A DNA stretch of 30,629 bases from Balamuthia mandrillaris (Eukaryota). Location: assembly GCA_031835245.2 (NCBI GenBank), contig JAVKOQ020000024.1, forward strand, positions 310,001-340,629, read 5' to 3'. Both the position numbers and the translations under genes were made by a program. Below the pieces are notes generated by a model. That model saw nothing but the letters and a program-made list of their open reading frames with translations. It was not told where the DNA came from and did not search any database. This document shows positions 4,288 to 29,360 of this stretch, piece by piece; the stretch's first letter is position 1, and every line of letters starts with the position of its first letter.

Positions 4288-4715
4288 CGTTTCGGAAGTG
4301 TAGCTAAGCGCCTTCACCAAGCAAACAGGCAACCAACTAGTTCTTCGGTGGCACCAACAACTACCAAACACAGAGAAGGAAGAGCCGCGGTGGTTCGGTA
4401 GCAGAGGATCTAAGGCCAGAAAGAAAGAGGCGCCTCTTTCTTCACGCTTGCTTGCGCAAGTGTGTAGAACCTCTCTTCCCCCCCTTTTTTTTTTGTGTGT
4501 GTGCGTGGTTGGAGGAGATATGACCCCTCCAGCAGCAACCAAAAAAATGGCCAAACTCTTCTTTCTTTCTGGCCTTAGATCCTCTATCCTCTCTCTTCTC
4601 CGCCGCAGCAGCAATCATCGCGCTGCTGCTGCTGCTGCTGGAGAAACTTCAAAAAAGAAAGAAAGAAAGAAAGAACAAATAAGAGGTCAAAGACCTCATC
4701 TCATCACAACAACAC

Positions 4716-10625: not shown

Positions 10626-12981
10626 ATGGGTCTTTGCAAGTGCAGAACAATCACAGACCTCTATTGCTTTGTGCACAAGAAAGCTGTGTGTGAGCATTGC
10701 GTTTTTCCTGAGCACAAAGTGGTACGTTGAAAGGGGAGACCAAAGAAAGCTCCACCCACCACGCCTACACCTTTCTTCTTCAGCTGAATGAGGCTTGCTT
10801 TCCATCACAGTGCGTCGTTGGTACCTATGTAGAATGGCTTCAAGATCCAGACTATGAACCTCCCACCTGTGCAGTATGTAAGGAAGAGCTCACAGAAGAC
10901 AACGTGCTTCGACTTCTCTGTCTTGGTTAGGGCCTTCCTCTACCTCGTTTTTGTCGCAACTCAGTAATCCCTTGCTTCCCCTACGTAGATATGTTTCACC
11001 CGGAATGCATTGATGTTCATGCTGCTTCCTTTCCCCCCAACACTGCACAAGCTGGCTTCACCTGTCCATCCTGCCTTGTACGTCTCTCTTTCTCTTCCTC
11101 TTTCCCTCTCTAACCAGTTCAGCCCCAAACAGAAAGGCATTATACCCTCCAGCAGTGCTGATTTATCTTCCCCTCTTGCCCAACAATTGCTGCGCCACCT
11201 CAACAACGCTCCTTGGTACAAGGGCAACAACTTGAGTTCCTTGGTAGTTGTCCTTTTTTTTTGTATTCCCTTCATCTCCTCTGTTCACTCCTCTCTCTCG
11301 CTCTCTTCTCTCTCCCTCCCCTGCTCTGCTCTCTGCTCTGCTCTCCACTCTCCTCTTCGTGTTCACCAACAACAAATTGCAGCCTTTACATGATGCTGGG
11401 GAGAGTGCCGTTGCTGAACATGACTCACTTCATGCGCCAGAAAGCAGCAACAGACAAGCAGCCATTCCCCTTCCTCCTGTTCGCCAGGACACTGCATTAG
11501 AAGTAACTACCAGTATGCCAGTGGCTAACACAGGTAAGTGACATGTCGTTTTTCTGTTTTGTTTCCCAAACTACTACCATACAAGCCCCATGGGGTTCCC
11601 TTGAAGTTTTCACGGCCCATGACACCAAATACTACTTGGTTCTCGGGGCTGTGTGAAAACTATTTAAGCAACCGCTCTGTTCCTTCCAGTCGTATCCCAC
11701 AGTCCCTTCATGTCACAAACCACTCCTACTAGCACTGCAACTACTGTCACTACCGCTACCAACACAGTTACCCCTCAAGCCTAGCCGATGTCACTGTAGA
11801 CCTTGTGCTTCGGGTAGGCTTCTCGCATACGCTCAACCTCAGGTTTGAGGTGCTCTCGTTGTCCATGACTGGAGACTCTACAGTGACATCGGCTCGGGCA
11901 TCAACTGGAAGCGCAAGGACTTTGTCACCCTTCTGGAACAGGTCCTTGCTGGACGTGTCGAGGAGGTTGTGGTTGCCCACAGGGACCGCCTCTGCCGGAT
12001 CGCCTTCGAGCTCGTCGAACACATCTTCCGTAAGTGTGGAACCCGTCTCCTGGTGCACCGTCCGGACGACGTCAGTGGCGACGACGATGACCCAGCAGAG
12101 CCAAGCTACGTCCTCGCCGACAAAAAGACCGCCAGAATGCTTTATTCCTGGGGCCATTACCGATTCCGCCAGTGGTTGCTGCATAAGGCGAGGGAGTGGG
12201 GCACCAAGGTCTACGTTCGATCGGAGGCCTGGACCAGCAAGACCTGCACCTGGTGCCTCCGTGTGACCCACGAGCAGAAGAAACCCAACCAGAGAGAGAG
12301 GATCTTCGAGTGCGGGCATAGGGACTGTGGGATACGACTGGATCGAGACATAAATGGAGCGCGCAACATTCTTCTACGGAACCTTGTTGCGTAGCGTTGC
12401 CCGATGGAGCCATATGGGGACGCGCTGATGGGAAAGTGGATGGGCGCTTCTGTAGCCCTCTAGCCCACCCCATCCCCGCATTCTCGCAAGAACTTTCATT
12501 TGTGGGTTTACTCACTTGTGTGACTTTTAATCCATCAGGGGTGGCCTCTCGGAAAGCTCAAAGGAGTAACTACGGGTTTCTGCGTGGGGCAGGTTCTCAG
12601 GTTGAGGATGACGATGATGATGACAAATACCGAAAGCATAGTATCATGCAACTTTTTCGTGGAATCTCGTACGTTGTTGCCCTTTCCTCCTTTTAAACAT
12701 GAAGAACAAGAACGGGCAGAAGGACAGAAAAGAAGAACTAGAAGAACCGATTGGCAAGAGCAAGAGAGGCAAATGAAAGGCGACAAGCTGCTAACCATGG
12801 AGATACTTTCACACCATCACCTAAAAGGCCAAAACAGGAACTATTGCCACTCTCCAGCAAACGGTCTCGTGCATTTAAGTGCACTACTCAGAAAGTACTA
12901 ATTGTGGTGGCGTTGCTTTCAACCCTCGCCACTGTTCTCTTTCTAAGCATGAAACTTAGAGTGGAACCCCTCAACGAATGA
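10626..12981 (+). CDS. ZFPL1: Zinc finger protein-like 1 (Golgi B-box/RING-like, C-terminal TM), 7 exons
   Basis: Exons 10626-10721, 10811-10925, 10989-11077, 11133-11243, 11383-11533, 12539-12668, 12858-12981. Motifs MGLCKC..T.LYCFVHK..VCEHC, YVEWLQDPDY, FHPEC..PPNTAQAGFTCPSC, DDDKYR and a C-terminal hydrophobic anchor. Confidence 0.93.
11586..11661. repeat. Structured left end of the Fanzor element (palindrome plus long hairpin)
   Basis: CCCCATGGGG palindrome at 11586-95; AGTTTTCAC 11605-13 / GTGAAAACT 11653-61; GGCCC / GGGCT; ACCAA 11624-28 / TTGGT 11636-40. Confidence 0.7.
11783..12118 (+). pseudogene. tnpA: IS607 TnpA serine recombinase remnant (N-terminal wHTH missing; catalytic segment 11801-11876 inverted)
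   Basis: + frame from 11879: YSDIGSGINWKRKDFVTLLEQVLAGRVEEVVVAHRDRLCRIAFELVEHIFRKCG. The - strand over ~11885-11784 reads HCRVSSHGQREHLKPEVERMREAYPKHKVYSDIG. Confidence 0.88.
11865..12394 (+). pseudogene. Fanzor2 (eukaryotic TnpB) with large internal deletion: N-terminal overlap segment (11865-~12120) plus RuvC-II/ZnF/RuvC-III (~12120-12394) in a different frame
   Basis: C-terminus KKTARMLYSWGHYRFRQWLLHKAREWG..VRSEAWTSKTCTWC...FECGHRDC..LDRDINGARNILLR keeps catalytic E and D and four Cys. N-terminus SPFWNRSLLDVSRRLWLPTG...SWCTV. RuvC-I (D-x-G) and WED/REC are absent. Confidence 0.9.
12395..12510 (+). ncRNA. Putative Fanzor omegaRNA scaffold (to ~12490) followed by a flank-derived guide
   Basis: Lies directly 3' of the Fanzor stop. 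Long hairpin: GATGGG 12427-32 / CCCATC 12469-74, GTGG 12436-39 / CCAC 12465-68, GGGC 12442-45 / GCCC 12455-58, with a wobble extension 12415-24 / 12477-88. Identity is inferred from known TnpB/Fanzor locus architecture. Confidence 0.55.
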
Positions 12982-18267: not shown

Positions 18268-19429
18268 CAAAACTTGAGTGAGTTTTCATTTTTCAACAAA
18301 TAATGATTTTTCTGAAATTTAATTATTTTCATTGTTTTTCCTCTATTCTCTTGAATAAACTTCTTTCATTATCCAAGGTTTCACTAACAATATAAAGAAT
18401 ACTCCGATTTTCATTCATCTTCTTTTGTGATTGTACTATGTTAAAACAGATACAGATTGAAGGCAGCTATCCTTGCAATGGACTCAACATTTACAATTTG
18501 TTCACACTTCACTTTCAACACCTTTCTTCTTCCTAAAAACCGCCAATGTCTAGAGCAGAGTCAAAAGTGGTTGTTGTTACAACCTAGCTTTGGGTTATGT
18601 CAATTCCTCTCTCTTATAACCCTGCTCCTAGACATAAAAGATTGATGACAGCTGACATGAGATCGTCAACAGAAAAGAGAAAAGAATAAAGAAAGAAACG
18701 AAGAATGAAAGATCTACTTCATGTGTATATTTTTTCTCTTTAATTCTGTTATTTTCTCCTTTTTCCATGTTATTCCTACTCCTTTAGGAATACAATACAT
18801 AGACATCAGCTGGGCTTGCCTGCCATCATCACTGTCCTTGCCCATGCTGTTGTTATTGCTCTTGTCATATTGTCTTTGTCCTTGCTATTGCTGCTGTTGG
18901 CGAGTCTGCATTGCCATGTTAGAAAACCAACAATTTACTTCATTATGACTTCCTATTGACACTCTCCCTAGATATCCCAAATTTTCTCACCTTTTTTATT
19001 TTCCCTTTTCCTCATGATACATTCAAAGCACACATTGCTCCATACCTTTTTCCTGTGAATAAACCCAGAGTTGCTTATATGCCATCCCTTTCTTGATCCA
19101 CTGGGTTTATTCCCCATCATATGTATAAGGAAGTGACTTGACAAAAAGGAGTGATAACAGGAACAAACCCAGTTATTGTTTAATAGCACTGTGACACTTT
19201 TACTTTTGGTTAAAGCTATCTTTCTGGATAGTTCTCTGCTTGCCTTTGCCCCTTGCTTTGTTTACTTACCTTCATAACAGTGAAATTCCTAAATGAGATA
19301 ACTTCACAGCCCTCAGCAAGGGCTGGGTAGAGTTGTTCAATGTGTTTCTTATGCAGAACATTGATCTTACTTTTTGCTTTGTTATTTCTAAAAGTAATAG
19401 TAGATATGTTTTTATAGTGCAGAGTTGGT

Positions 19430-19945
19430 TTGTCAGCGAGTTTGATATTTTTTTTTTGATTTTACTTTTTTTCCCACATAGTGATTCATACTCTTCTGTC
19501 ACCTCTTTCTCAGGTAGAAAATGAGCTTAGAAGGTGAAACTACTTGTGCTTGATGTGCCATAGTTCAGAGTAGTAGTGGGTATATGTTCATAGAGTTAAG
19601 TTGGTCTACAAAAGAGTTCACTATTTTTTTCTGACTTTTTTTTCCCAGGTAGCAACCCACAGTCTTCTGTCACCTCTATCTTGGGTAGGGAATGAGCTCA
19701 GAAGGAAAAACTACTTGCATTTAATGCACCATGGTTCAGAGTAGCTGCGGGTATACTCTTATTGTGTTGTTGATTTGCAAGAGAGTTTGCTATTTCTTTT
19801 TGACCTTTCTTTTTTTTCTCACATAGTGACCTATGCTCTTCTGCAATGTCTATCTCAGGTTCTTAGAAGGTAAAACTAGTGTTGCATATACCATGCCTCA
19901 GAATATTGTGGGTATGTGTTCATGGAGTGTTGTCGGTTTTGTCAC
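19430..19945. repeat. Degenerate tandem repeat, ~171-174 bp x3, plus a partial copy at ~20208-20237
   Basis: CTTCTG(TCACCTCT) recurs at 19493, 19664 and 19838, followed by AGAAGG..AACTA and GGGTAT. GAGAGTTTG.TATTTCTTTTTGACCTTTCT occurs at 19781 and 20208. Confidence 0.75.
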
Positions 19946-22478
19946 ACAGCGCAATCTGGGTCTGATCAATAGGATGACATCAACCAGCCAATCAACGGAA
20001 TCTCTAAGTATTGCATTACCACGGGAGAAGGGAAAAGAGGGGAAAAAGGAGAGAATAACAGAATTAGAGAGAGAAAACTGTACACATGAAGCAGGTCTTT
20101 TTAATAAGAGCAAACCAAGAACCACTCCAATCTTATCTCTCCTTTGTGAGCATTGTGTGAGAGAGAGGGATTGGCATGACCCAAGGCCGGGTTGTAGCAG
20201 TTTGTAGGAGAGTTTGTTATTTCTTTTTGACCTTTCTGTGTGCTTTGAGTGTGTCGTGAGGAAAAAGGGAAAATAAAAAGGAGTGAGAGAATTTGGGGTA
20301 TCCAGGGAAAGTGTCGACAGGAAGTCAAAATGATGCGAATTGTTGGTTTTCCAACATACTCCTTTGGGCTTACACTATCTTAGGTGAAGAATGGAACAAT
20401 GAAAGTTTCAACAATAAGGACTACCTTTGTGACCTTTGTACAACAGACTTCCAACTTCAATGAAAACAATGTTTATTAAAATAATACAACAGTTTTTAGT
20501 TAGCTATTGATGCAGATTATGAGTAGCCACTATCAAAAACTGCTTCATTAAAAACAGCAGTTATGGAAAAGACGTCAAAAACTGTTGAAAACTGCCAAAA
20601 CCTGCTCATAGTAAAATAGCTATGATTTGTCCAGTATAGACTACTGATCACCTAAAACTGCCATGAGTGCAGTTTTTCAACACAACATATGGCAAAGACA
20701 GCTAATGTCAATGCTAATGTGAATGTCAGACATTAACAATGAAGATATATGAAACTGTGCTAAGTTTGTTGGTTGTGTTTTCCTAGGCAGGTTTATAGTT
20801 TCCATCATTTTACATGACAAAAATTGATGGTTTTTCCATCAACCACCAAAAATTGCCAATATAAAGATATATCTCTTTCACTTCTCCTTCACATGTGTCA
20901 CTCCCTTGTCATTCTTTTCTATATCACACTCAGTATTCTTGCCAAAGCTGCGACGCTGAGTAACACTTTGGCTGCATTTTTCACTAAAAAGATCAGCACT
21001 TTTCTTCCTTTTACACATAGTTGTAATACACAATAACACATGGGGCATTGCCTTTGACCCTGGCAAGCTATTAACTTAATGCTCAACCTCCAAACCCCTC
21101 TTTTGCAGACTCATATCCTTGAACATCCTACTTCTTTTCCTCTATCCTTTTACCTTTTCCTTTTTCTAAAAGGGGAAGTATATTCGTTAAATGACCAACA
21201 CTTATCTCCGGACTCCTCATGTTGGATCTGTACTGGACCCTTAGTTCTGCTTTCTTTAGTATTCCCTCATTTTTCCTTTCTCCCTTTTTCCTTTTTTCTT
21301 GGTATACTTTGAAGTAATATCAGAGATTTACTCTCATTGTCCTTCTTCTATTCTTTTAAATACACTTCTTGTCTTGTCATTGACTCTTTTTTTATTCCTG
21401 AGCTTGGATTCAATCAACATTTTCTTGACTTACATAAGGGATTCAAATCCCTTTTTACACTACACACACACATTATAGAAGCTTCAGCTGTTCTTAACAT
21501 CAGTGAACAGCTTTGCAAGGCCAACAAGATTACTTCTACATGCTTTGATGATCCTTTCAGCTTGAACTTGATATTCCCAGCTGTCCTGAGACTGAATATA
21601 TCACCAAAGAAGAAGAACAGTGCAAGTTAGACAAAGCCACAGAACACACTAAAAAGGCCAGGGAAAGTTACAACAATATATAGACAACTTGTTTTCCTCA
21701 TATCCACCTTGACCACACTAGGCAATGCTTTCATGTGCACAACCTTTCAGACATCAAGGCCACAACAATTGAGGCTGTCACCTTGTGAAGCCTAGTAAAA
21801 GCATTTATCAGCTCATTGATCAGTACTTCGTACTCTGTAATTGTCTTCCAAACACTACATAGCTACAAGGAACACCATTGAGAAATATCTCTAGGAGAAT
21901 GGCTCTACTGAGAGGACCTTCCTTTACCCTCCTAATGCAGTGCTCCATTTAAACACTGGAGATCACTCTTTTGTCTTTCACAACTAATACCTCATTTCAC
22001 ACCATTTAACACTTATAATCAATTTGTAAGTGGCAGAATGGCTGTACACCAGCATCATCATGCTTGTCCTATCTAACAGTCCCTGGAACTGGTCTTATAT
22101 GCAATGCCTTAACATCCTTTTATCTTGCTTTTTTTTCATTTTTGCTTCAAAGTACATCCAAAGAAAGAGAAAAGAGAAAGGGAAAAGAAAGAAGACTATG
22201 GAGTTGTATATGAGGAGTTTTGAGATAAGCGTTGGTGATTTTACCAAGCATTATCACTTCCAGGCACAAAGAATAAAACTCTTCATGTAGAATGCTACTC
22301 TCTAGTAGTAATAAGAAGTTCATTTGCTCTAAGAACAACACCAATCTATACACCAAAGGTAAGTATTGTACATATATAGTGTACTCTTACTTTTCTTACC
22401 CTCATCCTTAATGCCTTCCCAATTGTTTTTAGTTTACAAGTGAAAGGTGTTGAATAAATTTTCAAACTATCTTTGTAT

Positions 22479-22667: not shown

Positions 22668-25600
22668 TCATGATACTGCTCTCCAATATGCCTGGACCAG
22701 GTCTGGCACATTGATAATGTTACGTTCAGGCTCCCAAGAGTTGTGGCAGTTGGAGAAACCTTTCCACTTCAACCTATATTCAAGTCCTCGACTGGTGTAG
22801 CGGTGATCTAAAACTTTCTCAACCTCATATTCGTCATTAGTGAGCTTTCTATCTTCATCGTTACATGGGATGAATCATTTGATGCGGTTTAGGTTTACCA
22901 CTTTATCCGTTTCAGGACCAGCAGTATTCTGCACCTTGATTGCCTGTGAAGAACAGCGCGGGCTTCTTCTGCAAGTTCACGCTGTGTCTCCTGCAGTTGC
23001 CTCACCCACGAATCATCGGACAGATGAGTAGTGTCCACCAAACTGGTACCATTGGACTTCCTCCCAAACATCAGCTCGTAAGGGGTAAATCATCGTCCTG
23101 GCAGTGGCGCGTAGTGATAAGAATAAAGTAGCATTGGAAGGTACGCACTCCAGGCTTGTTGCCTGCCATCCACAAATTTGCGAAGCTGCTCCTTAAGGGT
23201 GCGGTTGTATGCCGTTTCCTTGGAGATGCTCTGCCATGACGTATTTACACTTGATGCCCAGAAGAGTTGAAAGCTCATTGTTGAGTTTGTTAATGAACTC
23301 TCTTCCTTGATCAGACAGAAGCTCCTTCGGGAGGTCCATGCTCGCGAAGATCTCAAGTAAGGCCTTCACCACTTCCTTTGCTTGTTTCGTCTTCAATGGA
23401 CGAATGTCCGGCCAACACGTGAAGACGTCAATGGTGACCAAGGTGTATCAGTACCCTTCAGCCATCAAGGGCAACTCACCAATCAGGTCCATGCAGACCA
23501 ACTCGCCTGGCTCATTTGCAATAATGTGACCCAACGGCCCGTCAGCTTTCTTCCACGGAGCCTTCGCCTCCTGGCATTCCACAGCCCTTGACCCAATGTT
23601 CCACATCTTTGTGAATACCAGGCTACCAGTACTGCATGATGAGGCGGGAGTACATCTTTGTAAGGCCGAAATGCTCACCTGTAGGAACATCATGGAACTG
23701 ATGAAGTATCTCATTCCTAAGCTCCTTGGGCACGATTTGTTGGATGGTAGCTTGTTTGACCTTGGCTTTATCAGGCCAAATCACATGTAAAAGTTGTCCG
23801 TCTTGGAGGAAGCACTGCTCCATGAGTGCCAACTGATGGGGTGTCTTACATTGACATGCCTCCTCGTTGCCTTCAATGGCTTAGATGATCCATGAAAATT
23901 CATCATCATTATGCAGCAGCTCAAGCCATGAGTCAGAATCCAACTCCATATCCGGTAAAACCTGCAGGGAGCCACTTTCTTGTGACTGTATCTGATGGTC
24001 ATCTTCATCATCTGACTGGCTGCCTTCCCCTCCATCTGCAAAAGTAACCTGTTTGCAGTTCTTTGGACAAGTAACAGTGTTAACTGCACCAAGAGCGAAT
24101 GGTTCATGGCTGAGACTATCAGCATTTAAATGTTCTTTCCCTGGTCGGTGGGAAACTCAGACGTGGCCAAATTCCTGCAGCTTGGCAATCCACCTCACCA
24201 ACTTGCCCGAAGGGTTTTTCTGGGAGAACAGCCATTGCAGCGCTGAGTGGTCCGTGACGACACATTCAAGCTGCTGAAGAACATAATGTCTCCAATGCTG
24301 CAAGAAGACAATGGCGTAAGCCTCCTTCTCCGTAGCACTCCAATTGAGCTGCGGACCAGAAAGCTTCTTGCAGTAGGCTACAATGTGGTATAGCCCATCC
24401 TCTCCTTTCTGCTCCAGAGTTCTCCCAATGGTGTAATCACTGGCATCACAGCAGATCTGAAAGTCTTTTTCAGCATCGGGATAGGCAAGGACAGGAGAAC
24501 TGATAAGAGCCTCCTTTATCCCTTGGAAAGCCTGTTCCTGCTCATCGCTCCACACGAACTTCGTTTTGGGGCTCATGAAGTCGGTGAGGGGCTTCACCAT
24601 CTCAGCGAGATGATGAATGAACTTGCGATAGTAGTTTGCAAGTCCAAGGAAGCTTTGTAGTTGCTTCCTAGTGGTAGGGCGAGGGCAATCTTGCACCACC
24701 TTGACCTTGCTCTGCATGGGACTAATTCTGTCACTAGACACCATGTGTCCAAGGTACTCCATTATCTTCTTTACGAAGGTGCATTTGTTAATCTTCACAT
24801 AGAGTTGATACTCATGGAGATGCTCAAAGACCTTGTGTAAGTGAATGAGGTGGTCCTCAAATGTCTTGGAAAAAATGATGAGGTCATCAATGTGACACCA
24901 AGAAAATTTCCGCTTGAATTCGCTGAAGATCTCGTCCATTCCTCATTGGAACATAGCCGGAGTGTTGATAGGTCCGAAGGGCATAACTACAGGCTCAAAC
25001 TGGCCGGATTTCATAATGAAGGCTCACATATTTGCAATACGCTCCTCCATCAGGAAGTGCCAAAAACCACACGCTAGGTCAAACTTGGACCGGAACTTGG
25101 AGCCGTGGAGGCAATTCAGTCCGTCCTCAATGTTTGGCATAGGATAGGAGTCCTTCACTGTCTGTTTGTTTAGCTCTTTGTAATCAATACAGAAACATGG
25201 TTTTCTGTCCTTCTTAATGACGATGATTACTGAGTGTGCCCATTTGCTGACAGATTTGCGAATGACGCCCATGAGGAGCATGTCATCCGTGGCAGTGTCA
25301 ATGGTCTCCTGAACCTTGGTGCTTACCTTGTGAGGCTTCACACGGATGGGGGTATAATCTGTTAGGACTATCTTGTGGGGAGGAAGTTTAACACTTCTCG
25401 GCTCAGGAAGCTTGTAGCAAAAGACATCCTTGAATTCAAGGGCCAGCTCTAGAAGCTGTGCTTTCTGCCTGATATCCAGGTCCGTGTCATTCATGAGCTC
25501 TCTCAAGCCCATCATTGCCTCTTCCTTGGTGGAAAGCTCCACCAGGTAATTAACGTCCATGATGTCATGGGTCTCCTTTGTGACTGAGGTGCACACTTGG

Positions 25601-27086
25601 TCGTCATCAGAGTTGCAAGATGAACCTTCCACAGATTTGCTCTCAGTGAGAAGCAACCAGTGTTGTCATACTTCCAATGGCCAGTGGCACTTCTCCACAT
25701 ATCTCCATTATGTAGGCTACTCATTTTAACTTCTTTAGGTAGAAGTGTTTCTCAAACAAAGCTATTGGTGGCACAGGAATCCAGCGCGGCCTTGACTGTC
25801 TTTCTTCCAGAGATCCTCAATGTCATCCTCGGCAGACAATGTGTGTTCTTGACGACAATATTCATTGATCCTGTCCTTCCACCAGCACTGTCCTTCTGGG
25901 CTGGCGCCTGGCTTTGGCTTCCAGACTTGCCCTTTGTGTCCCGCAAAGCACCGCCAAAAGTATCCTTCTTCTTGCTTTGGTCAACACGTTTCTTTTCCAA
26001 GCACTCTCTTGTCCAGTGCTCTCTCAACTTGCAGTTGTAGCAAAAGGGTCTCTTTTTCCTCCTGTCATTGCCTGAACTGCTGTTATTGTTGTTCTTCTCC
26101 CACCTTGAGCTCTTTGACTGATGGTCCAAGCTCCGTTTCGCATGCTTGCGTCCTTCCAGTCTTTAGCGAGGTTCAGGGCATCAGCCATATTAGCGATATC
26201 TTCCTGCTGAAGGAATTTCTCCTTCAGGTCTGGAACAGCGCCTGTGACAAACTTCTCCAAGACCTGAGTCTCGCTGAAAACCGTGAGGAAAGCCTCTCAC
26301 AGTGCTGTACGCACTCACAAGTTCCAGGTGTCTACAGACTCATCAACATTCATCTGGAGGTTACCAAGCTTTATGATCTTAGCAGTTGCTCAGTCACAAT
26401 GCTGGAAGCAGTTGAGGAGCTGTGTTTTCGCCTCCATGGAGGTTAGTAGGACTCCACCTTTCGTTTGTTCTTGCTCAAGGAAGCAGTGAACAACATCAGT
26501 GTTGTCACGAAGTTGTCCTTCAAAGTGAAGGATATAGTCCTGATGACTCCAGCCAGTGTTGTGTTTGGCCATACATCGTTGTAAATCTTGATGGCATGCC
26601 ATAAGGTTGAGTGCAGGTTTTCTCTTCTCCTTCTCCTTTTCTTCCTCCTCTTCACTCAACAATGAAGAGCTGGACCCAGAGCCAAGATCATCATCTTTAT
26701 TCGCAAATTTGGCCTTAAGAAGGTTTTGCAGTTGAGAGATTGCATCGTTAAGAGCCACAAAAGCTACATCATGACTATCATTCACTTTTGATGTCATTTG
26801 AGAGCTCATCTGCAAAGGTTTCCAACTTTGCATTGATATGGTTGATATGGTCAGACAAAGAAGAAGTGTTGCTAGTCTGCTTGACCAAGAGCCTGTCGTG
26901 GTCCGCTTGGCTTGCGTGAAGCTCAGAGAGAGCCTGGTCGATGGCGTCTAGTCTGTCCATGGGAAGGGTTGTAGAAGTAGTAGGGGAAGGAGTGCTGGAA
27001 GCTGGAGGGATAGCACCACTGAAAGGTGGACCGCTCTGCACACCAAAAGAAGGAGTTGTACCAGACTGCAGCGAAGTTCCTGACAT
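22668..27086 (-). pseudogene. gag-pol of the Gypsy element (multiple frameshifts and stops)
   Basis: Fragment ORFs 26778-27086, 25752-26129, 25024-25656, 24157-24939 and 23193-23441. C-terminal chromodomain at 22832-22668: EYEVEKVLDHR...YRLKWKGFSNCHNSWEPERNI. Confidence 0.92.
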
Positions 27087-28489: not shown

Positions 28490-29360
28490 TTAAAAGAATA
28501 AAAGAGCAAAAAGGAAGAAGCTGCATTATATGACTTGGCCATACAGTGCCAGCCCCTGCTGGTCAGGCAAAAAATAATAAATGAGGAGAAAGAAGGTACT
28601 GTATCATATAGTACTGCTATTGTTGGCCAGCTAAAAAAAAATAAAACAAGGAGAGGAAAAGAGCTACAACATATGGTGCAGCTAGTGCAAAGCAATTGCC
28701 AGCCTGTCAAAAAAAAAATAAAAGTTGAAAGGAAAGGAGCTGCATCATATGGCAGCTGAATAAAAGAAAAAAGAGCATGAGGAAGAAGCTGCACCATATG
28801 CTACCATACATACAGCACAGCCACTGTCAGGCAAAAAAAGAATAAAAGCAAGAGAAGAAAAGAGCTGCATCATAGTTGGCAACTTCTAACATAGCCAACT
28901 TTTTCTTCATCAATCTTACCTGTCTGCTGTCATTAATCTTTTATATAACACAAAAGACACCTAGCCACTCAAGATCTTTTTTCTTCTTGTGAGAATCTGG
29001 ACAAGAACACACTTGCTTTCTTTCCTTTCAATAAATATGATTTATTCCTAGCTCTTTCTTTGTTTCTTTCTTGGTTCTATGCTCAAGCGCTAACACAGCC
29101 AGCCAAAATAAAATAAAAATAAAAATAAAAGAAGAAGGAACACACAGTACAACACAACAAATGCTAATCAGAAATAAGATAATAAAAGCAAAGGAAAGAG
29201 CTATGTCATACAGCACTAGCCTTTGCCACTAGACAAAAAGAAAAAAAGAGGAAAGGACAAAGTTGCACTATATGATGCAGCCACTGCTGACCAAAAAAAA
29301 AGAATAAAATAGGAAAGGGAAAGAACAGTGCTTACACTGTAGCCTTTGCCAGGTAGGCAA
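28490..29360. repeat. Degenerate minisatellite (~50-80 bp units; core GAARAGCTGCAYCATA preceded by A-rich runs)
   Basis: The core recurs near 28515, 28592, 28657, 28733, 28783, 28858, 29193, 29257 and 29320. Confidence 0.65.

Follow-up and report, generated by a model that had tools for sequence, protein, structure and literature searches.

Inverted repeat around the recombinase catalytic motif

The window, the 30,629-bp stretch of Balamuthia mandrillaris DNA analysed here, contains an inverted recombinase catalytic motif between the arms of a perfect inverted repeat, which raises the question of whether the segment is a reversible switch or the scar of a past event. The features concerned were located as follows.

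11783..11800, plus strand: left arm of the inverted repeat (11783–11792 newly duplicated; 11793–11800, natural 8-bp repeat)
11877..11894, plus strand: right arm, native tnpA sequence with the YSDIGS codons
11783..11884, minus strand: fragment of 102 nt, very probably reverse-copied, with TnpA residues 92–125 including the catalytic Ser motif; opposite-strand joint in native copies, sides of 102 and 84
11835..11845, no strand: perfect 11-nt micro-palindrome; native copies differ at 11838, 11840, 11842 and 11844

The two arms are exact reverse complements of 18 bp, separated by a spacer of 76 bp, and pairing stops at both arm ends. The minus strand from 11885 to 11784 encodes HCRVSSHGQREHLKPEVERMREAYPKHKVYSDIG without any flipping and was 88% identical to residues 92–125 of P0002, a B. 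mandrillaris protein taken as the parent TnpA/Fanzor reference, and residues 119–203 and 572–659 of P0002 were matched on the plus strand. The exact match of the arms and this alignment confirmed what a preliminary description of the locus had proposed, namely a perfect 18-bp repeat with an inverted TnpA catalytic motif; the TGA that it placed at 11846 in the plus-strand TnpA frame agrees with a stop found before 11849. When the element was resampled 200 times under a Markov model, its longest perfect inverted repeat measured 7–11 bp, as against the 18 bp observed, and a repeat of 8 bp is at chance level (at least 8 bp in 184 of the 200 resamples). The DNA fold had a z of -5.17, with none of 200 shuffles equally good. 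For the palindrome at 11835–11845 a second, small template switch is possible, which would fit if the ancestor had C at both 11837 and 11838, an ancestral state that is itself inferred.

Native copies and viral relatives

Eight of 21 public runs were compared as contigs or reads; those left out included X14, X15 and X17, with small shares. Contigs in native orientation were found in X3 (depth 192), X6 (114) and X7 (42); they were deeper than the window-type contigs and about 7% diverged from the window (12 of 176 letters in the X3 record, 13 of 195 in the X6 record). Their joint, written 11783/11895 or 11801/11877, is one junction, with 18 letters that fit either side. The preliminary description had asked whether other copies carry the 18-bp repeat: the native-orientation contigs have no long left arm and hold only the 8-bp repeat, which in intact copies sits between the Tyr-Cys-Arg and Val-Tyr-Ser codons, so that the left arm is new. 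In loose ends of X1, the match to the window stops at 11884 and continues into parent sequence absent from the window, which encodes EATEKIKAI, residues 83–91 of P0002 (one loose end, read by hand). The alignment with the parent tnpA, also called for earlier, showed in P0002 the segment in native order and the lost upstream codons. Compared with intact copies, the window copy is about 76 codons shorter, has gained a 10-bp inverted duplication and has its spacer inverted.

The motif was present in 71 of 80 viral tnpA loci, and the longest local inverted repeat in those 71 was 6–9 bp; a repeat linking the two codon sites measured 5–6 bp in 15 of them and was absent in the other 56. Inverted segment pairs numbered 0 of 109 across all 160 viral loci. 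No loci close to P0002 were found in viral or metagenome contigs, and the right-end motif had no exact match in viral contigs.

Coding capacity of the copy

Four remnants of coding sequence were recognised in the copy.

11710..11784, plus strand: start remnant of tnpA, 24 codons (MSQTT..., as P0002 begins), ended by a junction-made TAG (11782–11784)
11876..12121, plus strand: rest of the TnpA catalytic domain (Pfam Resolvase, E 1.8e-6), cut at the start of helix E
11865..12266, plus strand: overlapping Fanzor N-terminal frame (PFWN...LWLPT), 42% to P0005 residues 42–114, E 8e-11
12122..12394, plus strand: Fanzor2 C-terminal remnant with zinc finger and RuvC-III, 92% to P0002 572–659; PF07282, E 1e-16

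The native tnpA ATG at 11710 is kept, but its frame differs from that of the catalytic domain. The codons lost correspond approximately to P0002 residues 16–91 and include the MerR-like HTH at 32–72, in line with the earlier remark that the wHTH was lost at the left repeat; of the two domains of the parent, MerR-like HTH and Resolvase, the window copy retains the catalytic part only. A separate internal deletion near 12121, the junction of which was spanned by contigs of X2 (12077–12150) and X4 (12015–12150), takes out helix E and most of Fanzor and fuses the Fanzor2 C-terminal remnant in frame to TnpA. Since the TnpA part of P0002 is likewise left at helix E, the TnpA-Fanzor "fusion" of that protein is probably a gene-model artefact.

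It had been proposed that flipping the spacer restores the open reading frame. Locally this is so, but downstream of the stop at 11654 the restored frame offers no ATG (the absence of a nearby upstream ATG had been noted before), both the DNA-binding domain and helix E have been lost, and the frame runs on into the last 91 Fanzor codons. Moreover, the left arm encodes His at the position occupied by Tyr in 119 of 120 homologues, a count in which the search pattern, Y.RVS, itself demands Tyr. Similarly, the Fanzor frame described as beginning with MTGD does correspond to an overlapping Fanzor N-terminal frame, but the deletion at about 12121 puts it out of frame with the C-terminus and it stops at 12266. 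Judged from its coding sequence, neither orientation can yield a working protein, as the wHTH, helix E, an in-frame start and most of Fanzor are missing; deletion of helix E impairs assembly of the paired-end complex (PMC6188088, in the part available).

These results bear on the possibility of a reversible intragenic inversion switch toggling the transposase or Fanzor. Phase-variable DNA invertons, such as Hin/hix, fimS and the intragenic invertons, have inverted repeats around a segment whose orientation alters a reading frame. Perfect 18-bp arms around a catalytic motif, with the serine recombinase family at hand, would suit such a system; the Balamuthia copy differs from it in that the repeat is not ancestral, the second orientation was not seen among the joints listed and neither state gives a product. 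The arm is missing from intact copies and is not conserved in the 71 viral relatives, which have at most 6 bp at the site. A joint of the flipped locus was absent among those listed from eight runs (15 of 28 in the first run set; 3 of 3 in the second, in which X4 carries the derivative), a comparison in which rare variants can drop out of contigs. As no working product is made in either orientation, the switch would toggle nothing. We therefore regard this alternative of the preliminary description as extremely improbable, and the locus serves as a warning that perfect repeats around a catalytic motif need not be switches.

Probable origin of the inversion by a template switch

Very probably, the inverted segment was left behind by one inter-strand template switch, and the IS607/Fanzor2 copy that carries this scar is dead. 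On this view the polymerase would have jumped to the opposite strand once 11782 had been copied, run backwards along it for 102 nt and rejoined its original template at the natural 8-bp repeat, the order of the switch being 1-3-4-2; the same single event would account for the new arm, the inverted spacer and the loss of about 76 codons. Events of type 1-3-4-2 yield exactly an inverted repeat with an inverted spacer, and this order made up 23% of the filtered human-chimp events in the accessible part of Loytynoja and Goldman (2017, PMC5453318); with 102 nt copied and about 230 nt lost, the event here is larger than the short clusters typical there. In comparison with the native contigs and P0002, one reverse-copied fragment, 11783–11884, was found to explain both the repeat and the spacer. 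In native copies the agreement with the right arm ends at 11884, beyond which parent sequence follows, and this supports the reading preferred earlier, a one-off template switch that extended an 8-bp quasi-palindrome. The separate internal deletion would have joined TnpA to the Fanzor tail, and both lesions would probably stem from error-prone repair of gaps left by excision or by the Fanzor nuclease; restorative homing by Fanzor-type nucleases has been reviewed (PMC13565253, seen in part). The copy would persist because its ends are intact, and probably also through splicing that conceals it from the host gene. The element family is prone to rearrangement, with many deletion joints from left end to right end. 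It was also noticed that an opposite-strand joint, 12221/12359, in X1 and X6 represents another inverted derivative elsewhere in the family.

The same structure could also be reached in two steps, by a recombinational inversion between the 8-bp repeats, possibly with TnpA acting in trans, followed by hairpin-guided extension of the arms and an upstream deletion. The 8-bp repeat is indeed natural, and the left-junction contig of X4 stops at 11822, where a contig sharing the sequence from 11793 onward would branch, although low depth or an indel explains the stop equally well. Two events are needed where one suffices, however, and no contig linking parent upstream sequence to the inverted spacer was found among the joints listed. 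We consider this course unlikely. The inversion alone is ordinary, very probably a clean template-switch scar.

Support for the junctions outside the assembly

The preliminary description had raised the concern that the structure might be an assembly chimera unsupported by spanning reads. The left junction was crossed with 0 differences by contigs of X6 (11660–11837) and X4 (11660–11822), which belong to two studies. Support for the right junction was weaker: a contig of X4, 11823–11895, has the window's own letters with 0 differences, extends 19 letters past 11876 with 8 clipped letters beyond, and exceeds the natural 8-bp match by 11 letters; the bridge is shorter than 31 letters.

In study P1 (X1 and X2), in which the site is filled at both ends, no listed piece lay over either inversion junction. 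X1 carries only parent letters at 11838–11844, and in X2 the region 11674–11997 was uncovered at 97%, yet the internal deletion junction was present. The gap in P1 may reflect contig filtering or another state of the copy. Likewise X3 had no listed piece over the inversion junctions; such holes in contig coverage prove nothing. None of the raw RNA reads of X19 (16 reads) and X21 (6 reads) fell in the element interior.

An assembly artefact or a fold-back chimera of the library would be in keeping with the P1 runs and with the second long perfect inverted repeat of the window (26 bp, 4403–4585). It is very unlikely, since two studies, one of them represented by an RNA-like run, yielded contigs with the identical left junction and 0 differences over 163–178 letters, with the caveat that one of the two could be the source of the assembly.

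Boundaries of the element and its host gene

The surrounding element matters more than the inversion. Its start, at 11534, lies about 250 bp to the left of the repeat; its true ends and their splice-site form had been overlooked.

11534..12538, plus strand: whole non-autonomous IS607/Fanzor2 derivative, 1005 bp, with GT...AG ends (joint 11530->12536)
10626..12978, plus strand: host gene ZFPL1 with five ordinary introns (P0025, B. mandrillaris ZFPL1, 100% over the exons)
11531..11539, plus strand: left end, of the 5′ splice-site form CAG/GTAAGT; read-through meets an in-frame TGA two codons in
12395..12538, plus strand: right-end non-coding region, with ACTCAC 24 nt before the end and a terminal CAG; by analogy, the expected omega-RNA scaffold

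The joint 11530->12536, which skips 1005 letters with GT and AG at their ends, was found in X3, X6, X7 (record 24), X4 and X19; CAGG fits either side of it (11531–11534 or 12536–12539). In X3, X4 and X7 the contigs with 11530 joined to 12536 represent an empty site, as they retain the neighbouring intron sequence and are hence DNA-like, and in X1 and X2 contigs pass from flanking sequence into the element on either side, so that the element varies in presence (filled in X1 and X2, empty in X3, X4 and X7). It splits a coding exon of ZFPL1 at a Gly codon (VANT-G-VASRK), and its removal restores the host frame exactly.

Contigs of the public runs also contained loose ends in which different sequence flanks the element ahead of 11530 or beyond 12538; the latter numbered 13 in X1, 17 in X3 and 14 in X7, and in these other family copies the right end is the same AG, followed by varied flanks. 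The summed contig depth at the right end was at least 100-fold above that of the flanks in X1, X3 and X7, a value that does not represent copy number. The right flanks after 12538 start with A, C or G, and this variation points to a shared core of AG or CAG. Short copies keep both ends, as in the joint 11552->12490, which leaves about 70 nt; the introns of ZFPL1 itself measure 55–159 nt. No second copy of either element end was found in the window.

GTAAGT is the U1 consensus. At the right end, a branch-like ACTCAC lies upstream of the CAG acceptor, and the five introns of ZFPL1 end in AG acceptors and begin with GT donors that fit the consensus less well. The RNA fold of the right end was not significant, with a z of only -1.23, and no Rfam match was found there. 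It was also noticed that AG dinucleotides at 11688–11689 and 11701–11702 form acceptor-like sites upstream of the tnpA ATG (region 11676–11710); by hand count, use of the first would place tnpA in frame behind the host exon, a possible route to transposase expression from the host promoter.

Predicted removal of the element from mRNA

Based on its ends, removal of the element from mRNA by splicing is predicted. In X6, recorded as "DNA?", the neighbouring introns are spliced, i.e. the run is RNA-like, and the depths were 206 for the joined form, 13.5 for the element piece and 9–10 for the neighbouring intron, which fits splicing and equally an empty allele combined with decay of the filled transcript. 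Heterozygosity at intron sites was seen in X6, and the species has been characterised as diploid-like, its haplotypes being uneven (10.1101/2025.02.25.640156, in part). X19 departs from the window sequence at 11421 and 11428, and its 3 joined reads probably derive from an empty site. P0025 joins both exon halves, but its source could carry an empty site, so this does not prove splicing.

The wider proposal, for which we see an even chance, is that the Balamuthia IS607/Fanzor2 family acts as a generator of spliceosomal introns: crossover at the AG core would give each insertion a perfect donor at the left and a branch point and acceptor at the right, and exonic insertions in sense orientation would be removed exactly. 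If true, a eukaryotic element would have converged, by way of the spliceosome, on the arrangement of the bacterial IStron, and the splicing step would also sever the scaffold of the Fanzor guide RNA from its guide. If the element is spliced, transposons with a serine recombinase and an RNA-guided nuclease would join the known sources of new spliceosomal introns, the locus would offer a polymorphic system in which to watch intron gain, and the IStron-type conflict between splicing and guide RNA would become testable in a eukaryote.

Comparison with known systems

Eukaryotic IS607 elements with Fanzor2 (Bao and Jurka 2013, PMC3627910; "IS607EU", PMC13565253), as far as the consulted parts of these sources describe them, share with the present family a serine-recombinase TnpA with an N-terminal wHTH, an overlapping Fanzor2, the lack of terminal inverted repeats and a precise empty site. 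Here, the N-terminal wHTH was found in the parent P0002, Fanzor2/TnpB downstream of tnpA was recognised by the C-terminal remnant and the N-terminal overlap frame, and the precise empty site came with a short shared core as in IS607-type insertion. The window element differs by its ends, which have the form of a spliceosomal donor and acceptor, and the window copy is dead. IS607 inserts at GG (PMC6188088 and PMC10711439, in part), and this GG core (PMC6188088) differs from the apparent AG of the Balamuthia element. Among the viral relatives, L025–L027, L043/L057 and L098/L109 have end pairs with an AG core, and none with placeable ends has a GTAAGT left end (few pairs, read by eye in both cases). 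The TnpB-bearing loci L025–L027, L043 and L057 have ends that share the AG core and finish in ATCAG, like the right end of the Balamuthia family.

In IStrons, which combine IS607 or IS605 with a group I intron (PMC10690162, in the part available), the whole IS607 element would leave the host mRNA, as proposed here, and by analogy the 3′ splice site lies at the right end, the source of the guide RNA. The Balamuthia element, in a eukaryotic host, has no group I ribozyme (0 Rfam matches at E up to 1 in 11450–12650), and the host spliceosome would do the removal. With introners (Gozashti et al. 2025, PMC12130899, seen in part) the family has in common multiple, mostly non-autonomous copies, GT-AG ends and presence/absence variation, and the window copy, like introners, lies in a coding exon; in the present data, removal of the GT-AG element restored the frame, and many copies lay at different sites with presence/absence variation. 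The introner classes named in that paper are TIR, LTR, non-LTR, helitron and Crypton; Fanzor and TnpB have 0 occurrences in its main text, and IS607, Fanzor and Balamuthia have 0 in 12 of its 14 supplements, of which the other two may bear on the point. The available text of PMC10530073 and PMC3627910 mentions introns only inside Fanzor genes, or none. Introners linked to IS607 or Balamuthia were not found in the literature searched, a body of work that most subscription papers lie outside. The family may represent the spliceosomal equivalent of IStrons, a type of introner of which we found no description.

Other features of the window

The 26-bp perfect inverted repeat mentioned above has its arms at 4403–4428 and 4560–4585, with a spacer of 131 bp, and lies between divergent TRAPPC8-like and FNIP-like genes; it is possibly another template-switch scar. 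AT-rich DNA at 18575–20357 and 28492–29336 holds long, imperfect repeats, both inverted and direct, that are likely remnants of other transposons. On the minus strand, 24157–25656 contains fragments of a retrotransposon that encode parts of reverse transcriptase and RNase H.
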